From: Amphiscolops sp. MND2022
Lineage: Eukaryota
DNA length: 64,000 nucleotides
NCBI GenBank assembly: GCA_964187785.1
Contig: OZ076409.1
Coordinates: 42,844,001-42,908,000, forward strand
Direction of reading: 5' to 3'
The notes under the pieces are model-generated. The model saw only the letters and a list, made by a program, of their open reading frames with translations, searched no databases and was not told where the DNA came from. This document shows positions 23,001 through 47,680 of the stretch, piece by piece. Each line of letters begins with the position of its first letter. The stretch's first letter is position 1. Both the position numbers and the translations under genes were made by a program.

Positions 23001-23213
23001 ATGAAGTTGCTGAGCTGTTCACCGATGCTCCACTGAGAGGTCATGTTCCTGTTATTATGAGATTGGAATGTAGTAGCATCACTGAGAACACCAAGAAATT
23101 ATGGATTGAAAAGGGCGATTGGGCGGGTTGAACTTCTTTCATTGAGGGCCGAATAGATGATCTCATGGTTGTTGAAGACGACCCTGTTTTTCTTTGGAAC
23201 GAGTTCAAGAATC
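17039..23213 (+). repeat. ~3.09-kb tandem duplication (17039-20124 / 20125-23213)
   Basis: Junction at ~20125, where ...GAGTTCAAGAATCT is followed by TTTCATGTCTCCAGAT (=17039); copies colinear, roughly 90-95% identical by eye. Confidence 0.9.
17449..20124 (+). mobile_element. I-group-like LINE, 3'-truncated copy (PHD + CCHC knuckle ORF1, APE endonuclease start)
   Basis: PHD remnant (~18110-18280, WFCSKC), CYRCQKFGH..C knuckles, GDLNARH, NDGEPTF. Confidence 0.85.
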
Positions 23214-24941
23214 TGCTGCACGACGCTTCTTTTGGTCACACACCCCTCAAATGTGTTTCAAATCAAAGCAAACTGTTCTGGAACTCCGACTTGACAGACG
23301 CAAGCAATGAACTTCGATTTTTACGCAAAAGTACAAATCAAATTTTGAAAACAGACAAAAACAAAAGGCAGCGAAGGAACTTTTCAAAGATCTACTCAAC
23401 AAAAGTGTAACTGAATGGATGTAAAACTATCTGTCATCGCTTGGGCATAAAAGACGAAGAGAGTTTTGGACTTCTTACAAGACTTTACTCAACACTAGAC
23501 ATGAAGAAGTTGGTCTAATACGCAGTAAGGATGTGAGGCTCTTATACGCTACAGAGGAAATTAGCAAAGAATTTGAAACCACGTTCTTCGGCGGAGAACA
23601 TCTGAAAAAGCACATTTTCAACGATGCAACACAACTACAAGTAGAAGACAAAATAACCAACCGCATGATGATCTTGAACATGATAATGATGATTTATATG
23701 ATGAAATTACTTTCGATGAATTGAAGAATGCCAATTTGAAATCAAGCAACGCTAAATCTTTTGATATTGGTTGTCTCCATGTGACAATGATAAAGAAATT
23801 GAGCACTCCTTTTTCTGCTGACTATATTTAATGCTTGCTGGGAATATCATGTGTGGCAATGGACGAGTCACGAGTCGTGTTCATACGCAAACCAAATAAA
23901 AAGAGATTTGATGAATGCTCTTCATATCGACCACTCTCAATCTCCACTCATATCGGCAAAACGCTGGAAAAAATACTTGCAACTAGAATCAAATCACATC
24001 TCGATGTGAATGGACTGCTTAGGGACGAACAGGGGGGTTTCAGAGCGAAAAAAACACCACTCGATCGTTCTACAGACTACATCTCATGCTCGGAAATGCC
24101 AAAAGTTCACGTTTGCCGACGGTTCTGCTTAACATTGACCTTGAAAAGTCTTTCGATTGCGTGTGGGTGGACGATCTTCTCTTTAAACTGTTGGAACACA
24201 ATTTTTCTGGCAAAATGTATCAGATAATAAAATCGTTTTTAAAAACCAGAGTCGCTTCCATCGAATTGAATGGATACCAATCGCCGAAGTTCCAGAGAGA
24301 CGTTGGTGTACCACAGGGAAGTGTGTTGTCGACATTGCACTTCATCATCTTCCTAAACGACCTCCTCAGTAGTCAAGCACAAAAATTCGAGTTTGCAGAC
24401 GAAGGATTATCTGCCATCCTTCGAAAAACTTGTTCTGACATCGAGAAGTGGTGTGCAGATTGGAGGATGTTAGTGAACGGAGGAAAAATCGAACTAATCC
24501 TTTTCAATTGCGAAGCGAAAGACTTCGAACTCCCGTCCCTCAATGGTGCTTTATGTCAAGTTAAAAACACAACAAAGTCTCTTGGATAGCAAGCTTACTA
24601 CCGGGATCATTCTATTAAAGCAATCGAGAGAGCCAAGCGAAATTGGAATATCATCAAGTCGTTATGCAATAGAAAATGGAGCCTTGCAGTTTTAACGCTA
24701 GTTCTGCTGTAAAAACCACCATCTTACCCTCACTTTTTTTTGCAGCACCAATTTGGCTTGAGAAAGACCTCAAATACGTCACAGCAGTACATAACGATTT
24801 CACAAGGACAGTTTTTAGACACGGTTTTTTGACGAATATCGACTCATGTCAGGTACTGCTGGGAACGCCGCCTCATGATCTTCTGAGTACAGTCATCAAC
24901 TTCAAATTCCTCTTGAAGCTCAAACTAGATTTACTATATTG
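20549..24941 (+). mobile_element. I-group-like LINE, near-complete decayed copy, 5' part (continues at 41199)
   Basis: Same ORF1; RT motifs YRPLS, DLEKSFD, GVPQGSVLS, FAD; interrupted by a MITE after 24941. Confidence 0.85.
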
Positions 24942-25154: not shown

Positions 25155-27310
25155 TGTCACGACCCGCTCCCGGTCGGGATTTCACCTGCTGTGGGGGAAT
25201 ACCCAAATTCGCTAGAGGGAGAGGTCACGGAAGACCAGCGGGACACTAAAGTAATAAACACTTTTAAATCTTACCTTTATCTAAACCGCAGCACGAGTTA
25301 AGTTGAGCGGAAATGTAACGTAAAATATCCAAAAATGATTTCTGACAAATAGAATTTCCGGTCCAATGTTTTCACATGCAACAGTTTAATTTACTTCCGG
25401 TTTTAACTGTTGAAAATTCCATGACAATCTAAATACTAAAGATGAAAACATTCTTAACATTGGGATCAATTTTTCTCCTTTCCACACTAAAAAGAAAACA
25501 TTAAAACATTATCTAATTCCGTGATCCCAACGGAACGCATACAATCTAAAATGAAAAGAACATAGAAACAGTTAAGAAGATTTGTTTTCAGAGTTTGAAG
25601 TAGTTGTAAAAAGCCACTCAAAATACAGTCAAGTAATTTGAATAAACCTTTACAACGTTATGACAGCGTCACTCAAATATCTAAGTTGCTGGTATTTCTA
25701 ACTTACGGACCAATAGCGTTGTAGCTAATACAAGCAAATTTGCGCTCAAGCTAGTTAGAACCATTCCTAATGACGTCATTAAGAATGAATTTAAAGATGG
25801 CGAATTACTCCGAGCTTGCTCCGCTAGCAGCTAAGAAAGCTATACTCAATCTTAATATGTACGGAGTGCTTACGGAACAAATTGTAAGCCGAGAAACTTA
25901 TAGCCAATCTTAATACGTAGGGAGCATTTACGGAGCGTTTACGGAGTGAATTGTAATAGGTGAAGTTATACCTAATGTTAATACATGTAAGATAAGCGTG
26001 GAAAATTCTAAAACTCAGAAGCTATCCAAATACATTAGGATGTTCCTGAGGTCATGTAGAATTATTCTGAGATATTTAAATTATCATAAGGTTTTACTTT
26101 TTCCACCCGGATTCTCCCCGTTTAGTGATTAGATTAGAATGTTCGTGCTGTTAGTTAAGATAAAGGTAAATCACTTAATGAAGGAGCTTTGTATTATATT
26201 TTCGCAAAAGAAGTCACCTAATTTTGCTACGTTGGTATAACGTTACTGGATGTAATGCAATATTTTGTTATTTTGATTATTCGCTATAAAATCGAATCAT
26301 GTAAAATATTGTTAGATGTTTCTGTCATGTTGCCAGATATTCTTGATTCTTCAATAATCAGAATTCTTGTTTATGTTTATCACCTTTTCAGCATCACTTG
26401 TTCCTTGTCAAATATCTCACTTCATTAATCCGAAATTAGCCGAGATATTTCCGTAGCAAATTTTGCTTGTCATCATTTTTATAGCGAGTTGAAAATTTCA
26501 TCGCACGCAAACTGAATCATTGTTCACGCCAGCGTGCCTCTTGCGATGAAAATCTAACTAGATTTTTATTTTGCCGCATTTTCCGTGATTAAACCGGAAA
26601 TGGGACAACTGAACAAAATTGATTTCAACAAGTACTCCGTAAGATTGCCGTAACTAGGAATTTTAAATTATGAACAATTAATTGAAAGGCTGAAATGATA
26701 TGAATGATTAAGCATTTTTTATGAACAAAACGGATTTTAGGGATTCCTAGGAATTTTTAGGTGAGGAACAAATGATGCTGAGAGGGTATATATAGTTAGA
26801 AATCTCATGTAAAAATCAATCGACCCTTTTGTTTCACTGCGATCAATTTTGTTCCGTTATAATAACGAAAACTCATTCTTCGACGAATTCAAATATTTTC
26901 CGAAGACCTTGTTCTTGAACTCTGAAAAATGACTACCAGAAGCCAAAAGAGAAAAGCAGCTGAAGAGCTTATTTCAACTGAAATAGAAACTCCTCTACCC
27001 GAAAACACTACGGGCGAAAATCCTATAGTAGGTACAAGCAAATCTCCTAAAGTCACTACTGACAGTTTAGAGAATATAAAATCTGTGCTGAGAAAAGAAA
27101 TCATGTCTGACCTCACTAAGATCTCAGCTGAAAACCAGAAGGAGACGCTAAAACTGATAGCCCCGACCGTTAGAAAACAGACCGTATTAAGATCAACAGA
27201 GGATTCAGACTCTGACTCCGAGAACAATCCGGAAAACGCGACCTCAACCCCAATTAAAGGCAAAACCAATGCGACTAGCTCTAAAATAACGCCGAACAAT
27301 AGTCGTAACA
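25155..27310 (+). repeat. 5' LTR
   Basis: Direct repeat of 38719-40874 (~99% identical by manual count); TG...CA ends; TAATGACGTCATTA palindrome 25768-25781; TATATATAG 26787-26795. Confidence 0.97.
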
Positions 27311-28337
27311 TGGTGACAGGAGTCCTCAATGACACTACAAACCAACCCACCAAGAGACCAAAACACCGCGTACCTAACGACCAATCGAAGGAACGTCCAA
27401 CTACATCAAACATCCTGTTCGCGCCACAACCGCAGACATTCCCATCGGCCAATCTACTCCCGATGCCGAAAGCACTCACAGCTTCACTCCCCGTGTTCGA
27501 CGGTAAGTCAGAAAAATTCGAACTGTTTGAAGACTTATTCCGAAACAAAATCAAAATGTACCCCACTTAACTGAACTCCAAAAAATAAATTATTTCCACT
27601 CACTCCTGAGAGGGAACGCACTTCAAGCGTACTGTAACCTGGACGATACCAAAAAAGACAACTTGGAAGAAGTCATAACAGCCTTCAAACGCCGTTTTGG
27701 CGACTTCCAATCCTCTGCAAAAACGCGATGTGATTGGGACGCACTACACTTCGATCCCACTAAGCAAAAATTACACGAATTTCTGGATGTCTTGCAAAAA
27801 ACCGCAAAAGAAGCGTTCGGTCCAGAGGCGCAAAAATTCATAGACAAAGCTATATACGCAAAAATGCCGGACCATGTCAAAAAGATTCTCAACCGTGCCT
27901 ACCTCGAAGACAAGCCGTACAACGACATTGTCCTCCATCTCGAAAGAGAGATGCGCCTCAATGGCCTGGGCGCCCCAGACGAAACAATACTAGTTCCACT
28001 AAACACGGTCGACGTTGCTCCCCCGGAACCGAAAAAAGAGCCCACCCAACGAGGAAACTGCTTCCACTGTGGCAAATACGGCCACTACAAAGCCCAATGT
28101 AGAAAACTCCGCAAAGAACGCTACTACGAAACTAAAGCGCAAAACGGTGCTACCAATACAAATGACCCGCCCAGACCTAAATGTGACACATGTGGAAAAC
28201 TTCACAAAACTGAAAACTGCTGGTACGGAGCTAATGCGGCAAATGACCCCAGAAAGAAACGCCATGAATTTGCCATACCTACCAGCCAAATCAGTGAACA
28301 ACCGATCCCCACTGTCGAAATTCAGCCAAAAAACTAA
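26929..28337 (+). CDS. gag: Gag; one apparent 1-bp deletion at ~27561; two zinc knuckles
   Basis: ORFs 26929-27570 and ..28337 join (LPVFDGK...MYP/HLTELQKINYFHSLL); CFHCGKYGHYKAQC and CDTCGKLHKTENC. Confidence 0.9.
27311..27323 (+). promoter_or_regulatory. Primer binding site (tRNA-Leu-like, assignment uncertain)
   Basis: TGGTGACAGGAGT immediately follows the 5' LTR. Confidence 0.75.
28328..28334 (+). promoter_or_regulatory. -1 ribosomal frameshift slippery site A AAA AAC
   Basis: Heptamer directly before gag TAA; the -1 frame is open into pol (28481 frame); GC-rich segment with cTTCGg follows. Confidence 0.8.
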
Positions 28338-31300
28338 AAACGCCGCGCCTCCGCTTCGGGGAAACGGTAGACGCAAGGGCATATACAATCGAAGATCCCC
28401 CAAATCGTTACGAAGAAGACGCGATAACAGAATGCAACGACGAACCAACTCAGGACTGGCAACGGCGTTGGAACGTCGGCATGATCCTCCGTAACAACGC
28501 CAGACACCCCAATGATCCAAAACCACTACCTGCGTGGATCACGGAATCCCCCGACAACTATGCTACACTCAAACGGCCACTTCCCGAATCCAAAACGGAA
28601 CGAAAATACATCTATGATATGGACTATCGCTGCGACCCTTGGGATGAACCGGACATATACGATACCAATTCCCTGTCTTTCAAAATCCATATCCAAAACC
28701 CACCAAAAGAAAATGAAGAAACGATCAATTTTCCACAACCACCATCGCCAATTTTAAAGAAACCAAAATCGCCACAACCAACACCCGTCACCTCTGCGTC
28801 TACAACAATCAACGCCGAGGACATAATATGCTTAGAAGACAAAACACTGTGGCACACCAAAACTATAAACAATACCACAGACACCTCCGATCCTCCACCG
28901 TCACAGACAGCACCAGAACCACCAAAACGGCAGACCCAACATGAAAACGCAGAAACAACGGAATGCCCACAACAACTACCTTATGACCTCAAAGTCATAA
29001 AAGAGTTCATACAGCACGACAAGGACGACGACTACATTCCATTGATGTCAGCAATCACCCTAAAGAAGAAAAGGAGAATGCTCTTCATACCCCTAGACTT
29101 CGAAAAGGTCAGAATAGACGCCCTTGTAGATTCAGGCGCCTACATAAATGTCATCAGCGAGAGAGACGCAGAAAAAATACAAAAAGAAACTAAAGCGGCC
29201 ATAACTGCAAAAGCACCGCCGCCACCATTTAAAATTCAATACGCCAATACCGAACTTGAAAGAGCTCTCGCAACATACACGATGAAGTTCAACATCGGAG
29301 ACTACACGTTTGAAGAAACCTTCATCATAATGACAAAAGCATCATTCCCAATCATAGGTCTAGCATTTCTCCGGAAACATTCCGCGATCTTAGACACAGC
29401 GCAAGGAACAATCGACTTCCCACAAATACAAATCACCCTGGCCCTGAAAGACGAAATGCAGAAGTGTAACCCCAAACCCATCACCGTCAAAACCGAAGAA
29501 AAACACACCATCCCGGCACAATCTACACGGATCATACACGCGTCCATAACTGTGAGTACTGACCACCCAATAACTGGGACTATACAAACCCTACCACAGT
29601 ATGATGAGAACGCAAAACTCATAATAGCCCCTGCAATTACAACAGCCCGGGATAAACGCGTGCCTATTAAAATAGCGAACACAACAGACTTCCCCTACAC
29701 CATAACCCCCCACACAAAATTGGCGGAGTTACAAATATTGAAACCCGAAGAAACAAAATCAATTCGACCAGTAGACCTAGCAGCCCTCAATCTCCTCACT
29801 GAACATGACGATGTCATAGCGTACGTGAACGCGCTAATGCAAGTTGACTCTCCTGAACAAACAGAAGAGAAATTCTGGTTCCCTACCCCTGAAAATCCCG
29901 GAGATGAAACGGAACACACGCCCATTCAACAACGAATCCTCAAAGAACTGCGAGAATTACAGAAACTTGAGGAACTAGACCCCAAACAAAGTGAATCATC
30001 TAGAACCCAATTCCTATCAATGTTTAAATGGGACAATTCACTCATAACGGGAGAAGACCGTGAAAACCTAGAATCCATACTTGTTGAATTCAACGATATC
30101 TTTGCACTTCATCGGCTAGACATCGGAATGAATACGCAATTCAAAGTCTCACTGACGCCCAAAAACGACAACCCGGTATACACACAAAGCTTGCCCGTAC
30201 CAATCAACCTCAAAGACGACCTCACAGTGGAACTAGCTTTAATGCACAAATACGGGATCATCACCACCCTCCCCTTCTCCAAATACGCCAGTCCCATCTT
30301 CGCGCAACGCAAAGCCAACGGCAAATTACGACTTCTTGTGGATTTGCGGAAGATCAACGCACTCATCTCAGATGACTATATCAACAACAACCACCCCATC
30401 AGCACCCTCTCAGATGCGGCACAACACCTAGCGGGGAAACAACTGTTTTGCAAGCTCGACTGCTCCCAAGCCTACCACTGCCTCCAAATGGCAGATCAAA
30501 GGTCAGTAGAACTTCTCGCTTTTAATTTTGCTAGCAGAACGTTTGCCTACCGGAGGCTGGCCCAAAGCCTCAGCAGAGCACTGTCAGCATTCTCGAGCTT
30601 CATGCGGGAATACCTAGACACAGTCATCAAAGCAGTTCAATGTGCCCAATATGTCGATGACATCGGCATTGCCGCCAATACAATGGAACAACTAATCAAA
30701 AACATCAGAGCAGTTTTCAGGTGCATCCGCAAAGCGGGCCAAAAACTGACAATCGAGAAATGCCACTTCGGGGTCACTCAAGTTGAATTCCTCGGAAGAA
30801 CCATCACGCCCAACGGAATAGCCCCGCAAGACCACAAGATCACCAATTTCTTGTCCAAAATCAGATTTCCCCGATCAAAGAAACAAGTCCAAAAATACAT
30901 TGGGTTCATCAACTATTACCGAAATTACATACCAAGATTGTCAGAAAAAATGATCGGTATGTACGAACTTCTAAAAGCAGACGCCAAAATCACCATATCT
31001 GAAGAACTAGTCGACAACTTCAAAGCGATTAACGCGAGCCTAGCGGAAGCCTGCGGACTTGCACTCAGACAGCCGATTGCAGGAAAACAATATGTACTGA
31101 TGACGGATGCTAGCTTCCGAGCATCCGGATATGCGCTCATGATCGAAGAAAACGACGACAAAAAACTACTCTCCAAAAGAAAAACCTTCGCCCCTGTAGC
31201 TTTCGGATCACGCGTGTTCTCTCCGTCACAACTGAAGATGTCGATATACTGTAAAGAATTCCTCGCAATATATCATGCATTCCTTGAATATAGTCACATT

Positions 31301-33541
31301 CTCTGGGAAACAACACTATCTACACTAGTACTGACAGACAACAGATCAGTAACGAGATTTTTCCAGACGAAAACAACGCCACCCGCTCTCTGGAATGCAT
31401 GCGACTATGTACTCCAGTTCAAATTCAGCATCATGCACGTAGCTGGCTCGCAAAATACAGCAGCCGACTTCCTGTCTCGCCTCGAATTAACTCCAAAAGA
31501 GAGAATCCAACTCAAATTGCGAGACGACATCATAACGGCACCTATCGAGGTTAACCTACAGTCTACAGATGTTGCGGACGAAGAACAACTCTTTTTCCTG
31601 CCAGACGAAGAAGAGGAATCAGAACAAGAAATTTTCGCCAGGAAAGCCCTTAGCAAACAACGAGCAATAGACGAAAAGGAACAACAAAACTTGACAACGG
31701 AAGTCACAGAAACAGTGCACATACCTCTCAACTCAGCAGTATACGCCTTTGGAGCCATCAAGGAAAACGCCCGCATCCGCAACGAACAGGACGCGGACCC
31801 GATATTGAAAGCATTGAAACTACGGCTGCTTCACGAAGAGTACGACAAACACCTTCTCAAGACCGAACCCAGAGGACGAAACCTACTACGTCACGAAGAA
31901 AGAATAATAGTCAAAGACGGAGTACTCATGCGTAAATACTACGGAGAAGATGGCACAGTAACACATCACCAAATCCTCATACCGAAACATATAGTACCAG
32001 AACTCCTATCGACGCTACATGGAAAAATGAACAAACACCCAGGAATAACCAAAATGATTCAGGAAAGCCGAGCAAAGTACTACTATCCGGGACTAGCGCG
32101 GAAAATTAGAGCCTGGGTAATCAACTGCCCAGATTGCATAGCCAACAAACGAATCGACACGCGCCAAATACGTCCTAAAATGCTGAGTAATACAGAATTC
32201 ACATTCGGACCAGAAGATTGTCTAGAAGTCAATATTCTACCCAATCTACCCTCATCAAATGGCTACAAACACATCATAACCATGATGGACGTTTTCTCCC
32301 GTTATTTGTTCGCATACCCCACTCAAGACATGACTGCCAGAACAGTCGGACGATGCATAATTGACGTTATGACACGTCACTGTTATCTGCCTACAGTCAT
32401 TCTGACTGATAAAGGATCACAATTCCGATCAGATGTCGTGAACCAAATAGCACAAACACTGGACATACGGATTAGCCACGCATCGACGAAACATGCACAA
32501 ACGATTGGAATACTAGAGAGAACGCACGCATCTCTAAAGACGTCCCTTAAAATATCAACGGGAGAACGCCGTTCAATGTGGCACAAGTACGTACAAATAG
32601 CAGTCATGAATTACAATACAAGCTATCACGAGAGCCTAGGCTGCGAACCAACAACAGTGTTTCACGGACGCATCCCGTACAACATCCTAGACATCAAACT
32701 GGGACTCAAGCCAGAATGGAAAAAAGAAGCCAACAAAGACCTAACGGACGAATTACAGAAACAGATAGCTGAGATACATCAATCAGCCAAGGACAACCTT
32801 ATGCAATCATATTTGAAATATAAGCGATACTATGATAAAAAAGCGACAGCAACGCCATTGAAAATCAATGACTATTGCTATGTCCTGAATCCGAAGGCTG
32901 ATAACCAGTCAATGAAATTCGCTTTCAAAGATTGCATTTGGACGGGACCATATATAGTGGTCAAAGTCCTTTCTAACAACAACTATGTCGTAAGACGAAC
33001 GGGAACAAGATACACTCAAACCCTCCATAGAATTCGCCTAAGGCTATATGCGCCCAATCAACGAGTACCTGACGTAACAGTCAAAGTGGAAGAACAACTT
33101 CCAGATCCAGAGGTTAAAACAACCCACGACGATTGGTACGCGCAAGCTTGGGAAACCGAATTCGGAGAAGTTCTGTTCGGCAACTCATCGGAAAGAGAAA
33201 ATGAAGAAGCTAACATCACAGAGCTGCCAGCGGAAGACGCAAATACAACAGAGCAAGAAACAGTTATAACAACTGCAGACGAAACTTCAATAGCAGAACA
33301 AATTCCCTCCGGAAATGAAACGTCGCTCAACCTAGATGTCAGCGATAACCCTTTCATAATGACCCCACCGCCTATGTAAAGCCCTCCCATACCGCCTACA
33401 CTCCCGCCTATAGTTGTCGGATACAACCCGAGGAAAGCAGGAAGATACAACTTACGTCCTAACCCTAAGCCTAATGCACATCACGATTTCCGGATGCTTG
33501 ACGCAGTCACAACAGAAGAAATACCTCAAACTCAATATTGA
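28334..33541 (+). CDS. pol: Pol (protease, RT, RNase H, integrase); in-frame TAA at 33377 probably premature
   Basis: LVDSGA, QYVDD, TDAS, H..H..CPDC, TDKG..ERTH; frame continues past TAA with RYNLRP to TGA 33541. Confidence 0.95.
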
Positions 33542-33824
33542 ATGAAAACACTCAACGGGCTAAACCGAACCGGAGTAGCTACGTTAAATTTTTGCATCAG
33601 ATCTCTAAAACTACGTAAAACAAAAGAAAGCTACACATTAGCCAAAGATACAACAGCAGATAAAACAATATACAAAGGAAACTATCCATCGATGAAATAG
33701 CATCACAGTTTACATCACTTATTAGAAGGCTTTTTCAATTTATGGACTACGTCCGGATCTTTATCATTTTTCTTGCTCCCTTTCTTCGGCTTTTTCACTC
33801 CTCTGGCACCACCCTTCTGCGGTA

Positions 33825-36800
33825 CTACAGGCACTTCACGTGTCGTCTTAGGTCTCTTCGCATCAGAAGTGGTTCCAGCACTCTTTCCAACAGATAAACC
33901 ACAAGAAAGCTTAGATGACCCCGAACGCCCTTCCCAGCATCACTACTAGCAGTTCTAGTACATTGGTCCATACGAGCCAGCCGGTTGGTCTTATTACAAT
34001 CAACATAATGCGCCTCGTACTCTTTCCGGCGCTGCAACAACAATTTGTGACACGACTCATTGTGGGAAGAAACAAACGAGTCATACGTTGGGCCCACGAA
34101 ATCCTTCCACAAATTGATCTCACCACACACAAAGAAAACCCCAGCTTCATCTACAGCGGCTCGAACTGCATCCATAGTCTGACCGGTGAAGAAACGTTGA
34201 TGACAGTAACCAGGACTTAACACATATGACTGCACCAACTTGATACAATTCTGCAACGCGTCCTCACGCAGTGAACTACCACTGAGGATGATAGATACAG
34301 ATGGATAAACCACATCCAGGGTCTCGATCGTCAAACAACAGAGCTTAAAGATACGCATCAAACGCTCTCGAGACTGAAAACTAAAATCGCCCAACAAATA
34401 CTCCACTATATCTTTGACACTGCTAGCAGACTGCCAGGAACTACGGTGCTGACCCCGCTTCTCAAGCACATAACTGCTAAACTCGTCCACAGCACAGCGG
34501 GACTCCTCAGCAGTTATCAAATTACACGTCTTCAATAAACGGCACAAATCTGCAAACAAGGCAAATACACCATGGTCGCCGCCTTCGAACAAGATCTCAG
34601 GGCAGAAACTGTATAGACAACGTGACACTCCCGATGTCACACTCACACTACCAACAATCACGACGATCAACCTGTCCAGAAACTGTCGACATCGTGAACG
34701 AAACTCTGGCAGCTCTCCGGTCGTTCTAACCATCAAAGTTTTTCCGAAGTCATCATTTGCCAAGAAAGCGTCTGGAGCCACTACGGGAAAAGATGAAATC
34801 GCCTCAGCCGACATATATTTTTCCCACTCGTGAATGCCCGGAAGAGTTCCAACAGCGCGAGTCTTCAGCAAAAGGCAATACACGAAATTACAGAGCTCTC
34901 CGTATGAATGAAAACTGTAATCTCTACGGCTCTGTCGCAACTTCGTGAAATTGTTATAGACTAAAACACAAATGACACTAACCAACTGCTACGACTCCAA
35001 GACATACTCACAATTCAACGAAAACGCAAAGGCTACAAGAACAATCCATAAGGTGAATCTTCAGTCAACACAAGCACAATCAATCATCACGAATATCAAA
35101 CGGAACTCAATAGCCCTTACTCACATGTATCAAGTATCAGACGTAAAAGCCCGAGACGATGAAAAAACATCTCATCAGCAATGATGTTCCAATCAGTGCC
35201 TTTCAGCTAAAAACAACAAAATCACCGCCATCAAAATAACGAAACACACAATACCAAGAGAATTTATGAATATCCAACTTACTTTATCAGCAGTATCTTT
35301 AGCATGAGGAAGCCCGGTACAACGAATATACGGCTTTATCGATGGCCACAGCTCGATCAACTCGCCCACTAAATCGCGAAGATCTTCAAAAGCCACAACT
35401 CCTTTGGTGATACACCGGCGCAAGACAACCTTGTCCTCCGTCCACTCCTCGTACATGGCACTCTTCATCCGAACCACAATGTATTCGACCAATGTGACCA
35501 ACTCCACCATCCCGAATACATCCTGATGAGCTTGGCGAAAGCACTGGAGAAAGACATCGCTGCTGAAAGTGGACACAACCACAAATTGGCGAGTATCGTC
35601 CCGACTTTCACACAGCTCTCGGAATAACAACGGACTACAACCACGGATCGAAATTGGCAGAGGCCCATCAGTCAAACTACACAGGACCCGAGCAAGAGGA
35701 ACCAACTCAGCATCAGGGAATTTCTGGTCCAACGGCTGTTGATCCACGCAGATCCTTTTGAAATCCTCATCCTCCCAGTAGACTACGTAGCAACACTCGA
35801 GACCATCGCGCTTTACAAACTCCACACTGTTTTCACGTGACAAAGACACATTGCCCAGAACGGCACGCAATACCCGCGGAGCGAGACCCTGACAAAGGAA
35901 GGCCTAAAACACACACCAAATAAGCCAATTTGCTGATACAAACACTAAAGCAGTCAGTCATACAATCAGAGGAAAGATAAAAACACAAAACAACAGTCTA
36001 CGAAACAACCATAAACCAGACTAACCACAGTCTCAGAGCGGCTCCAATTCATCGAGAATTGAGGCTCCCGGAAGCCCAACGAAGACGTGAAGTGGCCCCA
36101 GAGATGTCGCAACAAGATAAAGTCGCCACCCCTGCCAACCAGGTCACAAACACTTGACACTAGGGTCATCAAAGGCACTTTTGAGTTTGGATGTGAATGC
36201 TTCAACAAATCCTCAGGGAAAGGAAATTCCACACCAAGATCTTCAAAAGGCCGCGCACGATAGTCAGCCAACTGTGTTTCGGTGAGAATCATTGGCTCCA
36301 GAATTTTGTTATACACAGGCAGATCCATATGTACCCTGTACGTAACATCACGCCGCCAATGTCCAACCGACCCGAAATGACGGATGATCTCGGACACACC
36401 GTGAGCACGTATGGCAACGTCTCGCTTGCACATCCGACAGAAGAAGTACTCATCTGACCCACTTTTGGCACCAGTCACGAAGTCATTGAATGTAGGATGT
36501 TCGCCAAGCATCCGTCGACTCAAAAGATTCCGCTTACTGTACTTGCGCTTCTTAGGACTCAACTTTGCGGACAGATCCCGAAATCCTATAACAACACCAT
36601 GAAAAATATCAAGTAAAGGCCACCACCATAGAGATAACTAATACTACACAACGCCCGCCATACAATAAGAAGAACTTACCACTTTGGATAGCCTCAGAAG
36701 TGCGTGTTTCCACCTCGTTCACTAACTGGCGACCCAATGCTACCCAATCCTGCGGCCCAAACGTAGTACCTCCGGTGTCATCTTGACCTATCAATACACA

Positions 36801-37623
36801 ATCATAAACAATAAGAGAAAAAAACACCTCTCCCCCATTACACAAATACAAAGGCCAACTAACTCAACCACCCCTTCAGATCCGCAGCCAGTTCAACGCC
36901 ATCAGAACTCTCCTCCACTCTCTTGGCACACGTAGGACTGACTCCAAAGCTAACGGACATACCCCGTGATACACCAGTCTTCCCTGCAAACGACACCCAA
37001 AGCGTAAAAACCACTCACCACAAAACAAACACCAAGAAAATTATGTCAACCATGTTAACCTTTCTTCCTGGTGGGGGTAACAGTCCCACCTCCATGGGAC
37101 TCAATACTGGAATCATCCCCATCCGAATCATCGTCGGAGTCTCCGGCATCTACTGTAGGCACACTTTTAGACCCACTAGCCTCACCCTCAGGAGGGAGAA
37201 CATTTACTGCCGGAGAAGATGCAAGTTCAGCCTGTCCGAGAGTAGACGTTATGTCGTTGATAACAGCACTGGGAATAACAAGCAAGATAGAGGAAACTGC
37301 GGGCAACAATGATCCAGAACAAGACGTCACTACTGCGGTAGTTGCAGAAGCAGCAACAACAGACGTTGTACCAGGTTGAGCTACTGAAAATCAGAATCTG
37401 GATTCAGACGCGTCAGAGTTACGGGTAGGACTACAAAGGCTGATCACCAAAATAACAAGTCCCAATACCCATGGAAATCAGAAAGATTTTACCAACCTGA
37501 AGTAGCCCGAACAAACTCTATGTCAGACACGCCCAATTCGCACTCAGAATGTCCATAAACCGTTTCGTTCCTACCGATGAAACCACCAGGTGGAATGGGG
37601 GGACGCACACTTTCTTCATCCAT
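33825..37623 (-). CDS. Spliced antisense accessory gene, ~1025 aa: acidic disordered N-terminus, BED-like zinc finger, putative inactive hAT-transposase-derived body
   Basis: Exons 37623-37497, 37383-37060, 36983-36864, 36787-36680, 36585-36026, 35903-35283, 35206-35125, 34960-33825; all seven introns GT..AG and phase-compatible; 3078 nt without internal stop; FCRMCKRDVAIRAHGVSEIIRHFGSVGH. Confidence 0.85.
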
Positions 37624-38084
37624 GATTCAACGGCAATCTAAAAATAAAAAGAAACGATCAGGAAAGAGAAGATTACGCGAGGTGAACGCAAACCCCCTAA
37701 AGGAACGAAACGTCCCCAAAATCCTACGGGCGAATCAAAACCTACAAGGAGATTCTCAAAAGACTTAAAGAAAAATCATTTTGAAATTACGGAGTATAAA
37801 CGTAGTTCCCCTAAAGAAGCATCAATGACGTCATACGGACAATCTCCGGAAAAGAATTGGTGACGCCATGATGAAGTTCAAAATTAGAAACTTTATTTAT
37901 ATCGGTTCAGCCAATCACAGCGCAGATGGAAACGAAACGTTTCCGAAGAAAAACGAACCGGAATAAAAGGAAAATAACAGCCAATAGGAATGCAGGAAAA
38001 TTACGAACGAAAAGGAAGTTGACCTTTTCCTTTGCCGCATCCCAAACGTGAAGTTAAGTTAGCTGAAATCTTCAGAATTCAAAA
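37624..38084. promoter_or_regulatory. Putative internal bidirectional promoter
   Basis: Lies between divergent ATGs; ATGACGTCAT 37825-37834, reverse CCAAT 37856-37860, CAGCCAATCA ~37908-37917, CAGCCAATAG ~37978-37987. Confidence 0.6.
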
Positions 38085-38813
38085 ATGAGCAATTACGAAC
38101 TCGTAATTGATATCTCTTCTGATGAAGAAGAAAACGAAGTCAGGCAAAGCACACCCATCAAAACCCTCCCACTAAATGGGATCACAGTTCTGAACCTCTC
38201 CGAAGCCTCCTTAGAAGCTACAAAAGGCAGCGCAGAAGAGATGATGGACTCTATCAATAGTCTAAATTTATCCGGCATCTCAGCGTCTACATTTGAGACT
38301 ATCGGTTCACCGAGAAAAATAAACTTCGGCACTACAAGCCCTGGCGAAGCTTTCATAGTGGAAGGGCATAGTACTGAAACGTCTGAAGAAAGCTACTTTG
38401 AAGAGCCGGATACTCCCCGTCAACTACCGCCGCTGCAGCCCGCCCCAGTATTACGAGACGTGTCTAACAAAGAGCTTCAGTACAATGGACCGCCTGCAAA
38501 AGCCGACAAACTCGACGACTTGATGGAGCCAGCAGTAGAAGAAATCGAAAACCCATACGGCATAGATCTACAAAGCAGCCTAGAATACAGCCCGTTGTGC
38601 GGACGTGGGACGAGATTCACCTCAACCAGGCTGGCAAGGACGCGGAAGCAACCCGTGCTCATCACGAGGGAGATTCCTCATTGCCCCAGACCGTGGGAAA
38701 CAGGCTATAGAGGCGCCCTGTCACGACCCGCTCCCGGTCGGGATTTCACCTGCTGTGGGGGAATACCCAAATTCGCTAGAGGGAGAGGTCACGGAAGACC
38801 AGCGGGACACTAA
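38085..38813 (+). CDS. Accessory ORF, 242 aa, acidic/Ser/Pro-rich with N-terminal SIM-like motif; ends inside the 3' LTR
   Basis: AAAATG start; MSNYELVIDISSDEEENE; uninterrupted frame; no signal peptide or TM stretch. Confidence 0.7.
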   Translation: MSNYELVIDISSDEEENEVRQSTPIKTLPLNGITVLNLSEASLEATKGSAEEMMDSINSLNLSGISASTFETIGSPRKINFGTTSPGEAFIVEGHSTETSEESYFEEPDTPRQLPPLQPAPVLRDVSNKELQYNGPPAKADKLDDLMEPAVEEIENPYGIDLQSSLEYSPLCGRGTRFTSTRLARTRKQPVLITREIPHCPRPWETGYRGALSRPAPGRDFTCCGGIPKFARGRGHGRPAGH

Positions 38814-40874
38814 AGTAATAAACACTTTTAAATCTTACCTTTATCTAAACCGCAGCACGAGTTAAGTTGAGCGGAAATGTAACGTAAAATATCCAAAAAT
38901 GATTTCTGACAAATAGAATTTCCGGTCCAATGTTTTCACATGCAACAGTTTAACTTACTTCCGGTTTTAACTGTTGAAAATTCCATGACAATCTAAATAC
39001 TAAAGATGAAAACATTCTTAACATTGGGATCAATTTTTTTCTCATTTCCACACTAAAAAGAAAACATTAAAACATTATCTAATTCCGTGATCCCAACGGA
39101 ACGCATACAATTAAAATGAAAAGAACATAGAAACAGTTAAGAAGATTTGTTTTCAGAGTTTGAAGTAGTTGTAAAAAGCCACTCAAAATACAGTCAAGTA
39201 ATTTGAATAAACCTTTACAACGTTATGACAGCGTCACTCAAATATGTAAGTTGCTGGTATTTCTAACTTATGGACCAATAGCGTTGTAGCTAATACCAGC
39301 AAATTTGCGCTCAAGCTAGTTAGAACCATTCCTAATGACGTCATTAAGAATGATTTTAAAGATGGCGAATTACTCCGAGCTTGCTCCGCTAGCAGCTAAG
39401 AAAGCTATACTCAATCTTAATATGTACGGAGTGCTTACGGAACAAATTGTAAGCCGAGAAAATTATAGCCAATCTTAATGCGTAGGGAGCATTTACGGAG
39501 CGTTTACGGAGTGAATTGTAATAGGTGAAGTTATACCTAATGTTAATACATGTAAGATAAGCGTGGAAAATTCTAAAACTCAGAAGCTATCCAAATACAT
39601 TAGGATGTTCCTGAGGTCATGTAGAATTATTCTGAGATATTTAAATTATCATAAGGTTTTACTTTTTCCACCCGGATCCTCCCCGTTTAGTGATTAGATT
39701 AGAATGTTCGTGCTGTTAGTTAAGATAAAGGTAAATCACTTAATGAAGGAGCTTTGTATTATATTTTCGCAAAAGAAGTCACCTAATTTTGCTACGTTGG
39801 TATAACGTTACTGGATGTAGTGCAATATTTTGTTATTTTGATTATTCGCTATAAAATCGAATCATGTAAAATATTGTTAGATGTTTCTGTCATGTTGCCA
39901 GATATTCTTGATTCTTCAATAATCAGAATTCTTGTTTATGTTTATCACCTTTTCAGCATCACTTGTTCCTTGTCAAATATCTCACTTCATTAATCCGAAA
40001 TTAGTCCGAGATATTTCCGTAGCAAATTTTGCTTGTCATCATTTTTATAGCGAGTTGAAAATTTCATCGCACGCAAACTGAATCATCGTTCACGCCAGCG
40101 TACCTCTTCCGATGAAAATCTAACTAGACTTTTATTTTGCCGCCTTTTCCGTGATTAAACCGGAAACGGGACAACTGAACAAAAATGATTTCAACAAGTA
40201 CTCCGTAAGATTGCCGTAACTAGGAATTTTAAATTATGAACAATTAATTGAAAGGCTGAAATGATATGAATGATTAAGCATTTTTTATGAACAAAACGGA
40301 TTTTAGGGATTCCTAGGAATTTTTAGGTGAGGAACAAATGATGCTGAGAGGGTATATATAGTTAGAAATCTCATGTAAAAATCAATCAACCCTTTTGTTT
40401 CACTGCGATCAATTTTGTTCCGTTATAATAACGAAAACTCATTCTTCGACGAATTCAAATATTTTCCGAAGACCTTGTTCTTGAACTCTGAAAAATGACT
40501 ACCAGAAGTCAAAAGAGAAAAGCAGCTGAAGAGCTTATTTCAACTGAAATAGAAACTCCTCTACCCGAAAATACTACGGGCGAAAATCCTATAGTAGGTA
40601 CAAGCAAATCTCCTAAAGTCACTACTGACAGTTTAGAGAATATAAAATCTGTGCTGAGAAAAGAAATCATGTCTGACCTCACTAAGATCTTAGCTGAAAA
40701 CCAGAAGGAGACGCTAAAACTGATAGCCCCGACCGTTAGAAAACAGACCGTATTAAGATCAACAGAGGATTCAGACTCTGATCCGAGAACATTCCGGAAA
40801 ACGCGACCTCAACCCCAATTAAAGGCAAACCAATGCGACTAGCTCTAAAATAACGCCGAACAATAGTCGTAACA
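38719..40874 (+). repeat. 3' LTR
   Basis: Direct repeat of 25155-27310; contains a truncated gag start at 40495. Confidence 0.97.
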
Positions 40875-41198
40875 ATGTCCCCATTTCCTCTAGTGCCCCG
40901 CGGCCCCTTGGGGCCGCCTATATTCCCATCTTGCTAAGCGAGGTCGAACAGGAGCAAAGACCTAGCGGGAACGGAGATCGCGAAGCGATCGTAGTGGGAG
41001 CTGGTCTTTGCGACGGTGAGGGCGAGCGTCCGTACACCGCATATGCCCCACATTGATATTTCCGTGAGTTGACTCATTTATTCTGTGAGTTGGATTGGAG
41101 TTGGCTTAATTTTGTGGTCACTTGGCCTAAAATTTTGAAGCCAAGTGACTCCTAAGAAATATTAGGCCAAATGGCATTAAGCAAAGTGACCTGTGACC

Positions 41199-41750
41199 CT
41201 ATATTGGACTCATGATGCATCTTCATTTTTCCCGGACAGTGTTGCTAACTTCCTCCAGAGTCATGTTACTCGATTCAGAAAGTTTTTGAGAATTCAAAAT
41301 TGTACGCGATAAAAACAGCAAGATGTCAGCCTTTTCAATAACCATCTTTGAAACCTCAGATGGAAAAATAATTACAAGTCATTTCTGAAATGTTGCACCA
41401 AAACCCCACCAGCTTGTAACAATATATCGCCCCTTTTAAACCTCCAATGGTATGACGCCATCAAAATATGTGAAATGTTGATCGGCAATTCTTTCGCTTC
41501 AGTCAAATACGCTTGGAAATATTGGCACGCGGAATCTCCGATGTGTCGTTGTGGCAAGAGTGAAGAGACTGCCGAACAATTCTTTCTGGCATGTGGTTAA
41601 TACCAAGTCATCAGACCTGAAGATATTGACTCATTGAATCTCCTGGACCCTGATGACTGCAATACCATTGTCGACTACATCTCACATTCAACGAAGTTAA
41701 AAGAATTCGTAAATCTCTCATCCTTGAATCCTAACCTAACTTTATCCAAC
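41199..41750 (+). mobile_element. 3' end of the I-group-like LINE begun at ~20549
   Basis: Resumes after the MITE TSD; C-terminal knuckle remnant MCRCGKSEETAEQFFLAC. Confidence 0.75.
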
Positions 41751-43866
41751 TCTCGAAGTAAAGCTTCAGTCTAGCAGAAATCATTCTCTAAAATAACTTT
41801 CCAACATGGCTAGAAATTGATAATGGTCTATGGCTGGAGCATTGTTCGTAGGATTTCTTTCCCGGCTTTTTTATAAGAGTGATCCTTGATATGTTCCAAG
41901 GCCATGTGGATGGGATCCAACATGTGTTAAACAGGAAGAGCAATAAAATTTTCATGTTGGCTCCCGATTTTTTCAGCATGGCAACATGAATCATTTCATT
42001 GTCAAATAACATGAATCATGTCATTGTCAAATGAAAAAGATCTGCATTTTTTCAAGGCCTCATTTAGTTCGACCATACTAAAATCACTGTCAAGTTCATG
42101 CCATAACTCAGGTGTGGTGTAATCAACAGTTGGTTGCCAGTCATGGAAATAGTTTCCTCCAAGATGCCTGCCTTCGAAAAATGTTTTGCGAAATTCTTGT
42201 GAAATGAACTTTGGATCGCACAAAAGCTCGCCATTTTTGTTTCTGACAATGCCAATATTCTCAAACTTATCTTTGAATAGTCTCTTATGACACTTCCAGA
42301 ATTCTCTACATTTTTGTACCCAAGCTGCTCTAGTTGATTACGTATCCACGTTGATGCAGACTCGCTCAAAAGGTCTTTGAAAAGCTCACTCTTCTCTTTA
42401 AAATCTTCGACATTCGAGTAATTGCATTGCGTTTGAATTTTCTTCTTGCTTCCCGCAATGATTTTCTCGCCTCTTCCAGCTTGGTAATCCAGAAAGGTTT
42501 GCTATGATTCGATACAGTTTTTGAGGGAATAAAATTTTGTGAGGCGTGGGCGATAAGCGAATTAGTGAATATCCAGAGTTCGTCAGCTTGATTGCTGGGA
42601 ACAGTGTAGCTATTCTGCTCCAGAAACAACGACCAATTGTCCCAATCGGCTTTTTCAATCCAAGGTTTAGACTTCGTTGTTATTGCTTCAGATACTGACT
42701 CAAATTCTACTGTGACTGGTATGTGGCCTCTATTTGGAGCACCCGAAAACAGCTCAACATCCTTGTCTACTGAGCTTCAATGAGGAATGTCACATTAGAA
42801 TATCACACAATATCCTTGATGAAGAACAAGAAGGTTTCAGGACTCATCGGAGCACTACCCGTTCTTTGTATCGTATGCATTTCGTATTAAAGGAAGCAAA
42901 GCGCTCGAAAAAGCCAACCGCACTACTGAATATTGATCTGGAAAAGACTTTTGATAGCATTTGGGTCCAAGGTCTGCTTTATAAACTTGAATCGGTGAAT
43001 TTGCCCCACAGGATGCTATGTATCATATCATCCTTTCTTAGCAATCGGAAGGGATTCATTGATATCAACGGCCATTACACTGAACTTTTCGATATTAATG
43101 TTGGTCTCCCCCAAGGCAGTGTGCTATCCCCTCTTCTTTTCGTTTTTTACCTTAGTGACTTCTTATCCGAAGTCGAGGTAAAGTTCAAATTTGCAGATGA
43201 CAGCTCGGCTATCATCTCTGCTTTTAACACAGATACCTTACATTCAACTCTACAAGCTATTTGTCATAATATAGAATTTTGGTGCAAAAAGAGGAGAATG
43301 GTAGTTAATGGGTCTAAAACTGAACTACATCTTTTGAATTGCTTGGCTGACAACACTGAGCCAATCCTTCTCAACGGGGAGCGATGCAAGACGAAGCAAA
43401 CTACTAAATCTCTGGGCTTAGCTATAGACACTAACCTCACCTTTAGAGAGCAAACGTCTATTACGGCCTCGAAAGCTTTAACTAGCTGGAGGCTGCTTTA
43501 GAGTAAATGCTCTAACAGGTGGGGCCTCAGTATACCAACACAAGCCTATCTGTATAAAACCATAATCAGACCACAGTTATTATATGCGGAGCCGATATGG
43601 GCCCAAAGAAACTATGCAAGCCTACAGATTGTTTAAAATCGAATAATTCGCTCCATAATGAAACACAGCATGTCTCCAAAGATAACAGCTATTGAAGTGT
43701 TGATGGGGATTCCTCCTGTAAATATTTATTGTTCTTCAATTGAAATAAAATTTTTAACCAAAGCAGTGAATGAAGATGATTTAGTTACCGCGACCCATGT
43801 CAAAACATTGACAAGACCCCGTAGTCTCTCCTCCCTTCTCCTAAGCAAACTGAGAAGATTTGAAAG
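41749..43866 (+). mobile_element. 5'-inverted I-group-like LINE, copy 1 (41749-~42795 inverted; ~42800 onward forward)
   Basis: Minus segment ends ...SHVGKLF*RMISARLKLYFE; plus segment resumes SHNILDEEQEGFR, DLEKTFD, PQGS, FADD. Confidence 0.85.
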
Positions 43867-44206
43867 GGGTGGTTGTAAATAGGTCCAATTTTTCTGGTCG
43901 AAAGGACAGAGGTCGAACCTTCTGATCGAATTGCAGGGATCGAATGGAATGCGGTCGAATTTTATCGTATTTGTTGTATGGCTCGGTCGCTTCGCTCCCT
44001 TCGCCAAGTAGCAACATTGAGGCATGGTCATATGGTACGTCGCTCCGCTTCGCTTCGCTCCTGCATTCAAGGCACTAGGGGTATGTGAACATATCTGACT
44101 ACGTTATAAAAATTTCGATCCGAGTTGTTTCGATCCCATTCAAAAATTTGGTATTTCGACCTGAGGACTAACTCTGATTTTCGATCCCGTTCCTTCGACC
44201 CGTTCC
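43867..44206. mobile_element. Truncated copy of the 47327-47696 MITE
   Basis: Near-identical to 47327-47680; right end cut by the duplication junction. Confidence 0.7.
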
Positions 44207-47200
44207 GTAATTATTTTAAACCAAGTGTATCGGGTATTGGCTTAAAATCACTTAGTTGAAAATACGTGGCAGATTTCGTCGAAATGTCATATCAAGCACC
44301 CCTCGGATATGTCCCCAATTCCTCTAGTGCCCCGCGGCCCCCCTGGGGCCGCCTATATTCCCGTCTTGCTAAGCGAGGTCGAACAGGAGCAAAGACCTAG
44401 CGGGAACGGAGATCGCGAAGCGATCGTAGTGGGAGCTGGTCTTTGCGACGGTGAGGGCGAGCGTCCGTACACCGCATATGCCCCACATTGATATTTCCGT
44501 GAGTTGACTCATTTATTCTGTGAGTTGGATTGGAGTTGGCTTAATTTTGTGGTCACTTGGCCTAAAATTTTGAAGCCAAGTGACTCCTAAGAAATATTAG
44601 GCCAAATGGCATTAAGCAAAGTGACCTGTGACCCTATATTGGACTCATGATGCATCTTCATTTTTCCCGGACAGCGTTGCTAACTTCCTCCAGAGTCATG
44701 TTACTCGATTCGGAAAGTTTTTGAGAATTCAAAATTGTACGCGATAAAAACAGCAAGATGTCAGCCTTTTCAATAACCATCTTTGAAACCTCATATGGAA
44801 AAATAATTACAAGTCATTTCTGAAATGTTGCACCAAAACCCCACCAACTTGTAACAATATATCGCCCCTTTTAAACCTCCAATGGTATGACGCCATCAAA
44901 ATATGTGAAATGTTGATCGGCAATTCTTTCGCTTCAGTCAAATACGCTTGGAAATATTGGCACGCGGAATCTCCGATGTGTCGTTGTGGCAAGAGTGAAG
45001 AGACTGCCGAACAATTCTTTCTGGCATGTGGTTAATACCAAGTCATCAGACCTGAAGACATTGACTCATTGAATCTCCTGGACCCTTATGACTGCAATAC
45101 CATTGTCGACTACATCTCACATTCAACGAAGTTAAAAGAATTCGTAAATCTCTCATCCTTGAATCCTAACCTAACTTTATCCAACTCTCGAAGTAAAGCT
45201 TCAGTCTAGCAGAAATCATTCTCTAAAATAACTTTCCAACATGGCTAGAAATTGATAATGGTCTATGGCTGGAGTATTGTTCGTAGAATTTCTTTCCCGG
45301 CTTTTTTATAAGAGTGATCCTTGATATGTTCCAACGCCATGTGGATGGGATCCAACATGTGTTAAACAGGAAGAGCAATAAATTTTTCATGTTGGCTCCC
45401 GATTTTTTCAGCATGGCAACATGAATCATGTCATTGCCAAATAACATGAATCTTGTCATTGTCAAATGAAAAAGATCTGCATTTTTTCAAGGCCTCATTT
45501 AGTTCGACCATACTAAAATCACTGTCAAGTTTATGCCATAACTCAGGCGCGGTGTAATCAACAGTTGGTTGCCAGTCATGGAAATAGTTTCCTCCAAGAT
45601 GCCTGCCTTCGAAAAATGTTTTGCGAAATTCTTGTGAAATGAACTTTGGATCGAACAAAAGCTCGCCATTTTTGTTTCTGACAATGCCAATATTCTCAAA
45701 CTTATCTTTGAATAGTCTCTTATGACACTTCCAGAATTCTCTACATTTTTGTACCCAAGCTGCTCTAGTTGATTACGTATCCACGTTGATGCAGCCTCGC
45801 TCAAAAGGTCTTTGAAAAGCTCACTCTTTTCTTTAAAATCTTCGCCATTCGAGTAATTGCATTGCGTTTGAATTTTCTTCTTGCTTCCCGCAATGATTTA
45901 CTCGCCTCTTCCAGCTTGGTAATCCAGAAAGGTTTGCTATGATTCGATACAGTTTTTGAGGGAATAAAATTTTGTGAGGCGTGGGCGATAAGCGAATTAG
46001 TGAATATCCAGAGTTCGTCAGCTTGATTGCTGGGAACAGTGTAGCTATTCTGCTCCAGAAACAACGACCAATTGTCCCAATCGGCTTTTTCAATCCAAGG
46101 TTTAGACTTCGTTGTTATTGCTTCAGATACTGACTCAAATTCTACTGTGACTGGTATGTGGCCTCTATTTGGAGCACCCGAAAACAGCTCAACATCCTTG
46201 TCTACTGAGCTTCTATGAGGAATGTCACATTAGAATATCACACAATATCCTTGATGAAGAACAAGAAGGTTTCAGGACTCATCGGAGCACTACCCGTTCT
46301 TTGTATCGTATGCATCTCGTATTAAAGGAAGCAAAGCGCTCGAAAAAGCCAACCGCACTACTGAATATTGATCTGGAAAAGGCCTTTGATAGCATTTGGG
46401 TCCAAGGTCTGCTTTATAAACTTGAATCGGTGAATTTTCCCCACAGGATGCTATGTATCATATCATCCTTTCTTAGCAATCGGAAGGGATTCATTGATGT
46501 CAACGGCCATTACACTGAACTTTTCGATATTAATGTTGGTCTCCCCCGAGGCAGTGTGCTTTCCCCTCTTCTTTTTGTTTTTTACCTTAGTGACTTCTTA
46601 TCCGAAGTCGAGGTAAAGTTCAAATTTGCAGATGACAGCTCGGCTATCATCTCTGCTTTTAACACAGATACCTTACATTCAACTCTACAAGCTATTTGTC
46701 ATAATATAGAATTTTGGTGCAAAAAGAGGAGAATGGTAGTTAATGGGTCTAAAACTGAGCTACTTCTTTTGAATTGCTTGGCTGACAACACTGAGCCAAT
46801 CTGTCTCAACGGGGAGCGATGCAAGACGAAGCAAACTACTAAATCTCTGGGCTTAGCTATAGACACTAACCTCACCTTTAAAGAGCAAACGTCTATTACG
46901 GCCTCGAATGTTTTAACTAGCTGGTGGCTGCTTTAGAGTAAATGCTCTAACAGGTGGGGCCTCAGTATACCAACACAAGCCTAACTGTATAAACCCATAA
47001 TCAGACCACAGTTATTATATGCGGAGCCGATATGGGCCCAAAGAAACTATGCAAGCCCGGCTTACAGATTTTAAATAGGGCCTACAGATTGTTTAAAATC
47101 GAATAATTCGCTCCATAATGAAACACGGCATGTCTCCAAAGATAACAGCTATTGAAGTGTTGATGGGGATTCCTCCTGTAAATATTTATTGTTTTTCAAT

Positions 47201-47680
47201 TGAAATAAAATTTTTAACCAAAGCAGTGAATGAAGATGATTTAGTTACCGCGACGCATGTCAAAACATTGACAAGACCCCGTAGTCTCTCCTCCCTTCTC
47301 CTAAGCAAACTGAGAAGATTTGAAAGGGGTGGTTGTAAATAGGTCCAATTTTTCTGGGAGGGGTCGAACCTATAGGGGTTCGTTCTATAGGGGTCGAACC
47401 TTCTGATCGAATTGCAGGGATCGAATGGAATGCGGTCGAATTTTATCGTATTTGTTGTATGGCTCGGTCGCTTCGCTCCCTTCGCCAAGTAGCAACATTG
47501 AGGCATGGTCATATGGTACGTCGCTCCGCTTCGCTTCGCTCCTGCATTCAAGGCACTAGGGGTATGTGAACATATCTGACTACGTTATAAAAATTTCGAT
47601 CCGAGTTGTTTCGATCCCATTCAAAAACTTGGTATTTCGACCTGAGGACTAACTCTGATTTTCGATCCCGTTCCTTCGAC
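44207..47680 (+). repeat. Second unit of a ~3.45-kb tandem duplication (first unit = 25012-25154 + 40880-44206)
   Basis: Colinear near-identical sequence at offset ~3435; includes an uninterrupted MITE core 44207-44633. Confidence 0.92.

Follow-up and report, generated by a model that had tools for sequence, protein, structure and literature searches.

A conserved, intron-bearing antisense gene of probable hAT origin in a clade of Ty3/Gypsy retrotransposons

The window analysed here (64,000 nt of contig OZ076409.1 of Amphiscolops sp. MND2022) contains a young Gypsy element that carries a large gene on the strand opposite to pol. The account favoured on balance is that a Gypsy clade maintains this antisense, intron-bearing gene, that the gene is likely a former hAT transposase gene, and that its product would be a nuclear, non-cutting accessory regulator that binds the element's own DNA. 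Where the antisense extra genes of LTR retrotransposons come from and what they do is a known puzzle, and the gene described here is large, predicted to be spliced and strongly selected, with candidate places in the thousands (a first look gave 7300, and 109 of these were scored).

The host element and the predicted antisense gene

The element is a 15.7-kb LTR retrotransposon (25155-40874) with a 5-bp target duplication, ATGTC (Table 1). The domain order of its pol identifies it as Ty3/Gypsy. In the window copy, gag is split over two frames, with the switch near 27531-27570, and its start is observed to lie within the LTR (26926-27310, and again 40492-40874), so that about 125 gag codons are repeated in the 3' LTR. 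A spacer separates the antisense gene from a second extra ORF, and it contains CCAAT, TGACGTCA and TATA-like words as candidate promoter words. Pfam gave no match for this sense ORF, and similar sequence is present in all 20 copies fetched; in its similarity, the ORF is observed to follow pol and not the antisense gene. Elsewhere in the window, LINE-like sequence forms two tandem duplications, one at 40875-47681 (about 3.4 kb, 97%) and one at 17036-23214 (about 3.1 kb, 92%).

Table 1. Features of the retrotransposon and of its antisense gene (positions in the window)
Feature	Position	Strand	Remarks
5' LTR	25155..27310	+	2156 nt, TG...CA ends; about 98.7% identity with the 3' LTR
gag	26926..28337	+	Weak Retrotrans_gag and zf-CCHC matches (Pfam)
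pol	28298..33379	+	Order PR-RT-RH-IN
Antisense gene, whole coding region	37623..33825	-	Between pol and the 3' LTR
Exon 1 (predicted)	37497..37623	-	ATG; 42 codons
Intron 1	37384..37496	-	Highest DNA conservation within the cassette; possible cis element
Exon 2 (predicted)	37090..37383	-	Ser/Thr/Asp-rich low complexity
Exon 3 (predicted)	36864..36983	-	Splice sites by eye; least certain exon
Exon 4 (predicted)	36680..36787	-	Splice sites by eye
Exon 5	36026..36585	-	NLS-like basic PKKRK, CxxC-x16-H-x5-H finger, helical domain
Exon 6	35283..35903	-	Predicted sheet of three strands, with two more strands and helices, in RNase H-like order
Exon 7	35125..35206	-	27 codons; found in 20/20 copies
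Exon 8	33825..34960	-	Helical region with a putative remnant of the hAT C-terminus and a basic tail
Head-to-head spacer, antisense gene and sense ORF	37624..38085	.	Candidate two-way promoter
Second extra ORF	38067..38813	+	248 codons; extends into the 3' LTR
3' LTR	38719..40874	+	2156 nt, TG...CA ends

The first-pass annotation had read a series of minus-strand motifs as parts of one protein encoded within a retrotransposon, and this reading is borne out. PKKRK followed by FCRMCKRDVAIRAHGVSEIIRHFGSVGH, then ENSVEFVKR...CYVVYW, ISIRGCSP, LIELWPSIKPYI and RLMRIFKLCCL lie on that strand in the order given, all of them fall in a single predicted model of eight coding exons, and the model lies inside the LTR element, opposite to pol. 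The span of 34200-36500 that had been assigned to the gene falls short of its coding region.

The predicted spliced gene measures 3048 nt and encodes 1015 aa; its introns (76-164 nt) are without exception GT-AG, their phases agree, and no internal stop is present. When the splice borders are projected onto 20 diverged copies, GT/AG is found at 116 of 120 borders despite varying intron lengths, and both splice sites of exon 7 are present in every copy. Exons 1-4 are less certain, with splice sites and motifs judged by eye in nine other copies, in which the GF.SGNE motif and the donor of exon 1 are visible. Exon 6 also holds the beginning of a putative insertion domain, and near codon 345 exon 8 of the window copy shifts out of the frame used by the 12 scored copies closest to it. 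In exon 3 and in four other copies (L037, L045, L046 and L047), TPPK was seen by eye after a word of K/R-x-V-x-F type; we take these words to resemble a PP1-docking motif and CDK sites. The longest plus-strand frame across the gene has 149 codons, so the gene is not the shadow of a sense ORF, and that candidate was rejected. An env identity was rejected in view of the antisense orientation and the nuclear-type motifs.

Conservation, selection and cassette exchange

The candidate places mentioned above come from a search of the source genome (1.07 Gb) with the last exon, in which the 109 scored copies showed 46-100% identity. Twenty of these were picked for spread, and in all 20 exons 5-8 occur in order and antisense to pol. 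A search of 1.84 billion proteins with a profile of exon 5 retrieved 438 at E 0.001 or better, and the best 150 of the 438 were inspected. One homologue, P0077, is a single frame of 890 aa, and 26 more relatives accompany it. They form an intronless-core subfamily, which matches exons 6 and 8 with hhalign probabilities of 99.7 and 99.9, and by this profile comparison the intron-rich and intronless-core subfamilies are one family over the whole length. The intronless-core subfamily occurs in the source genome too, antisense to pol in LTR elements at 4/4 loci, with an integrase identity of about 55%; its member P0156 is identical to G000:C5:40514273-40516855. A third subfamily (about 20% identity), together with further relatives, is antisense to pol at 18/19 loci. 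Among loci sampled via the antisense gene, the orientation is thus shared by 42 of 43 (20/20, 4/4 and 18/19). The three deep subfamilies are 20-30% identical, and the antisense gene predates their split. One subfamily (L101-L114) shows an open frame of 872 codons where the window subfamily has three introns, a difference that reflects the loss or gain of introns within a gene of a retroelement.

No copy beyond LTR elements was recognised among the loci examined; at one locus (L122), no pol lies within 9.9 kb and a partial tandem copy is present. Copies about 13.6 kb apart were observed at G000:C10:2574432-2602300 and at G000:C1:90758099 and 90771693, a spacing that suggests tandem elements with a common LTR. 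Because four homologues match the source genome at just 30-40%, the family probably reaches other genomes as well. The metagenome and viral contigs searched contained no relatives of the gene, and none of 2499 candidates was a longer homologue of exon 8.

The antisense gene is under purifying selection. Selection was assessed in copies whose exon is free of stops and frameshifts (11, 14 and 15 rows for exons 5, 6 and 8, respectively). Against copy L032, dN/dS is 0.06, 0.05 and 0.07 for these exons, and the median over unsaturated pairs with dS above 0.3 is 0.11 (10/55 pairs), 0.14 (38/91) and 0.15 (33/105); 43, 50 and 66 pairs are saturated, and close pairs range between 0.06 and 0.65. These data contradict the candidate of a nested hAT transposon that merely decays inside the retroelement, which was rejected and which we regard as barely credible: nested insertions are common and several copies do contain stops or frameshifts, but dN/dS is 0.05-0.15 with synonymous sites saturated, the splice sites are conserved, position and orientation are identical in three deep subfamilies, and the flanks of the window copy (33380-33830 against 37621-38100) contain no perfect inverted repeat of at least 10 bp.

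In 19 of 20 copies the region of intron 1 is 85-100% identical over a stretch of 128-141 nt, and the remaining copy matches in part. Across cassette types this intron is observed to surpass every exon in conservation, and CAGGTTG at the donor is able to pair with CAACCTG just beyond the acceptor in 16/16 aligned copies. Intron 1 may serve as a site for protein binding, as an RNA element or as a point of crossover. It was not detected in the intronless-core subfamily, and Rfam gave no match over 33300-41000. Stems are predicted on both strands, with compensatory changes in 2/24 and 1/36 pairs; nearly all pairs are invariant, and the folds therefore give no structural proof.

A comparison of pol with the antisense gene reveals that the latter passes from one pol backbone to another as a cassette. 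Three copies (L037, L038 and L048) are 98-99% identical to the window copy in RNase H and integrase and 51-54% identical in the antisense protein, whereas the corresponding values for L032 are 90-94% and 85-86%. The pol tree places the window copy with L037/L038/L048, and the antisense tree (a quick tree) places it with L032-L036. Pairwise identities, which are non-independent, are correlated inside each module (rho 0.73 and 0.66) and hardly from one module to the other (0.10-0.17). At the DNA level, the window copy shares 86-95% identity with L037, L038 and L041 at the pol end; over the antisense gene the value is mostly 62-77% or the sequences are unalignable, and it is back to mostly 80-90% at the spacer and sense ORF. 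The cassette thus moves without the adjoining candidate promoter and sense ORF, which counts against strict type-specific self-regulation via those sites.

These swaps also bear on a distinctly unlikely alternative, in which a hAT-derived protein acts at integration by binding cDNA ends or the integrase and, as a tether, brings these to selected chromatin or sequence, replacing a chromodomain. Exchange on near-identical pol backbones could alter target choice, and the finger and basic tails are conserved; however, a separate antisense gene outside the polyprotein leaves delivery to the particle unexplained, and an integrase that stays at 98-99% while the antisense gene falls to 51-54% gives no sign of co-evolution. 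Returning to a regulator of the element itself, a more far-reaching and, taken whole, unlikely version is that a clade of animal retrotransposons domesticated a hAT transposase as an antisense regulator with seven introns and now passes strongly diverged versions of this regulator around between elements whose pol backbones are nearly the same, in the manner of phage immunity cassettes, the purpose being to evade host silencing or to decide which elements regulate one another. Natural swaps on near-identical backbones offer a ready comparison for function via genome and small-RNA data.

Probable relationship of the antisense protein to hAT transposases

The PKKRK motif and the CxxC-x16-H-x5-H finger were found as first annotated and lie in exon 5, and the finger is near invariant family-wide (CxxC in 47/47 rows, both histidines in 46/47), which suggests that the protein probably binds DNA. 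The NLS-like basic motif, the finger and the acidic low-complexity N-terminus point to a nuclear product, and dimerisation might be expected by analogy with hAT biology only. In Pfam searches of 91 rows, one row, the homologue P0150, matched zf-BED (E 0.013, below cut-off) and one matched DDE_Tnp_4 (E 0.15); Dimer_Tnp_hAT (PF05699) is not among the 25 families listed for these rows.

The body of the protein probably derives from a hAT transposase, a grading that reflects weak collinear signals, none of which is significant and which one setting lost. Against a set of 61 Tip-type hATs, the core aligns with β1-β3 at P 0.33, 0.074 or 0.041 depending on the profile, with FSLTFRE placed on FSVLVDE. 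The alignment at P 0.074 beats eight shuffles and a reversed control, and that at P 0.041 was obtained with both sides trimmed to the core. The last exon aligns with the hAT C-terminus over 131 columns (P 0.057), with a D on the catalytic E. The literal ER.FS motif is missing from this region, as the earlier annotation had noted, but a weak profile alignment puts YPSVSIILS/YPVVDMSLS on that motif. Under other hhalign settings the best matches are off register, and 2/45 and 9/45 shuffles score equally high; single-exon profiles likewise give off-register alignments with hATs. Against Ac-type hATs the finger alone is aligned (P 0.11, below the best shuffle), and a merged profile run on 139 sequences (long ORFs and proteins, most of them hATs) gives scores no better than those of their reversals.

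Structure prediction gave models of low confidence (pLDDT 58-60). The AlphaFold model of exon 6 (pLDDT 60) contains three neighbouring strands, two more strands and helices, and this strand-helix order fits RNase H. Hermes (8edg, residues 282-354) superimposes on the helical half of the model, residues 130-207, with Z 2.7 and rmsd 2.9 over 64 residues, and ranks 24 of 991; among the top 50 structure rows, two Hermes chains are the only ones to extend beyond residue 132. In the comparison with Hermes that had been proposed for the fold, Foldseek places Hermes at rank 19 with E 0.49. In a wide VIA search with the exon 6 model, the best Z is 4.8, from β-hairpin matches, and Hermes is absent from the best 50 rows. 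The exon 8 model has no Foldseek match at E 0.001 or better, and its VIA rows are of coiled-coil type only. An Atlas search with P0077 gave ten best family-bearing clusters, eight of which have a common family or clan; the rows listed for it are mainly DUF4371, FAM200-ZBED5, DUF659 and Dimer_Tnp_hAT (0.79-0.82; leads only). With exon 8, Atlas gave no hAT cluster.

Searches by sequence gave nothing in Pfam above cut-off for single ORFs and alignments of the antisense gene, and nothing in the PDB at E below 0.09. Exon profiles run against host hAT loci (443 and 638 ORFs) yielded no significant match, and a DUF4371 search of the source genome gave no match, though a Tip-type hAT (L085) is present there. 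The host possesses several hAT families (L072-L085; Ac-like, DUF659-like and Tip-like) whose open frames are long and whose motifs seem intact, and none of them matched the antisense gene.

In favour of hAT ancestry, the best profile and structure alignments lie where predicted and most Atlas leads belong to hAT families; against it, none of these is significant, and sequence searches of Pfam and the PDB gave no significant match. The absence of a significant match in profile, Pfam, PDB and fold searches would also suit a body of other origin, that is, a BED/C2H2-like finger joined to a domain of another DDE family or of a host gene, with the hAT likeness due to chance or to a generic α/β fold. 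We consider this rather unlikely: the separate weak signals run in hAT order over about 600 residues, they include the D on the catalytic E and the Hermes 282-354 segment, and the Tip- and Ac-type comparison sets may differ from the donor family.

Turning to the catalytic residues expected of a hAT-derived body, the window copy carries V, R and S where D, D and E are assigned, and to this extent the reported loss of acids holds; parts of the family nevertheless keep an acid at one position. The first position is acidic in 7/10 rows of the window subfamily (E), 0/20 of the intronless-core subfamily, 1/7 of the third subfamily and 2/5 others. The second, a column placed tentatively by motif, is acidic in 0/10, 2/20, 0/7 and 3/5, and the third in 0/10, 20/20 (D/E), 0/8 and 0/4, respectively. 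No subfamily is acidic at all three columns, which were assigned from weak alignments. CxxH, expected after the second Asp, is missing in 42/42 rows shown. Neither an intact DDE triad nor flanking TIRs, the combination that the first-pass annotation had set against its own reading, was found, with no complete triad at the assigned columns and no perfect inverted repeats of at least 10 bp between the flanks of the window copy. Residual metal-dependent activity with an altered active site, such as nicking or DNA-end processing, could draw on the D/E at the third position in all 20 intronless-core rows and the E at the first in seven of ten window-subfamily rows. It is nonetheless highly improbable, since the kept acids sit in different subfamilies, the window copy has none, and the CxxH that is missing in the rows shown is, together with DDE, described in PMC4763223 as required for the activity of Kat1 and Hermes.

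Proposed role and comparison with known systems

In the favoured account, an ancient nested insertion would have placed a hAT gene in reverse orientation, after which the retroelement kept it. The reverse orientation would shield the introns from removal, because genomic RNA reads them backwards, and it would account for a retroelement retaining an intron-rich gene. The ability to cut would have been lost, because an active transposase gives the retroelement nothing and would break DNA. The product may quite possibly promote transcription or counter host silencing by binding to the LTR or to internal sites, with the conserved intron 1 and the LTR as candidate binding sites.

Antisense extra ORFs are already known from plant Gypsy elements. 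The aORF-3R of maize Grande, rice RIRE2, Silene Retand (TRP28/PF04195) and Botrytis Boty (brtn), as described in PMC7264820 and PMC11963269, resemble the present gene in position, orientation and retention in most copies, and their products are proposed there to be nuclear DNA-binding regulators. In the loci sampled, the present gene likewise is conserved, coding, located between pol and the 3' LTR and antisense, which is the aORF-3R pattern. It differs in its animal host, its length of about 1000 aa, its seven predicted coding introns and its probable hAT origin, and Pfam gave no PF04195 match in the gene or its homologues. According to PMC7264820, most ORFs of this kind are of unknown origin, and their dissimilarity to other TEs lends no support to a nested-TE origin; to that view, the present gene would be a counter-example if it is hAT-derived.

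Two further systems share single traits with the gene. The plant mobile domain (PMD) is common to Gypsy and MULE elements, and thus to class I and class II, and an anti-silencing role is speculated for it in PMC5418596; however, PMD is not a transposase, and the same paper proposes that MULEs captured host PMD genes. LTR elements of bdelloid rotifers carry extra ORF3 genes (GDSL, DEDDy and env-like) and are, like the present element, animal LTR elements with modular accessory genes, but these genes belong to other protein families, and the word transposase is absent from PMC5408684. Within the titles and abstract openings searched, no hAT-derived gene, or other transposase-derived antisense ORF, in an LTR retrotransposon was described; prior annotation in Repbase or in subscription journals is possible.

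The hAT transposases themselves (Hermes, Kat1 and the Tip/ZMYM1/ZNF862 type) share with the antisense protein an N-terminal CxxC...H...H finger, a predicted RNase H-like strand order and a helical middle, and its C-terminal segment is weakly alignable to the hAT domain. Unlike them, it has no complete DDE, no CxxH and no TIRs, is borne by a retroelement and is accompanied by a 5-bp and not an 8-bp duplication. Host-domesticated hAT proteins such as ZBED1/DREF, ZBED6, DAYSLEEPER, ZNF862 and FAM200 are reused for DNA or chromatin binding, often without catalysis. A transposase scaffold would be reused in the present case as well, whereas the "host" is here a mobile element, and its gene exists in many copies that are swapped between lineages; if the proposed account is true, one mobile element has domesticated the enzyme of another, as hosts do.
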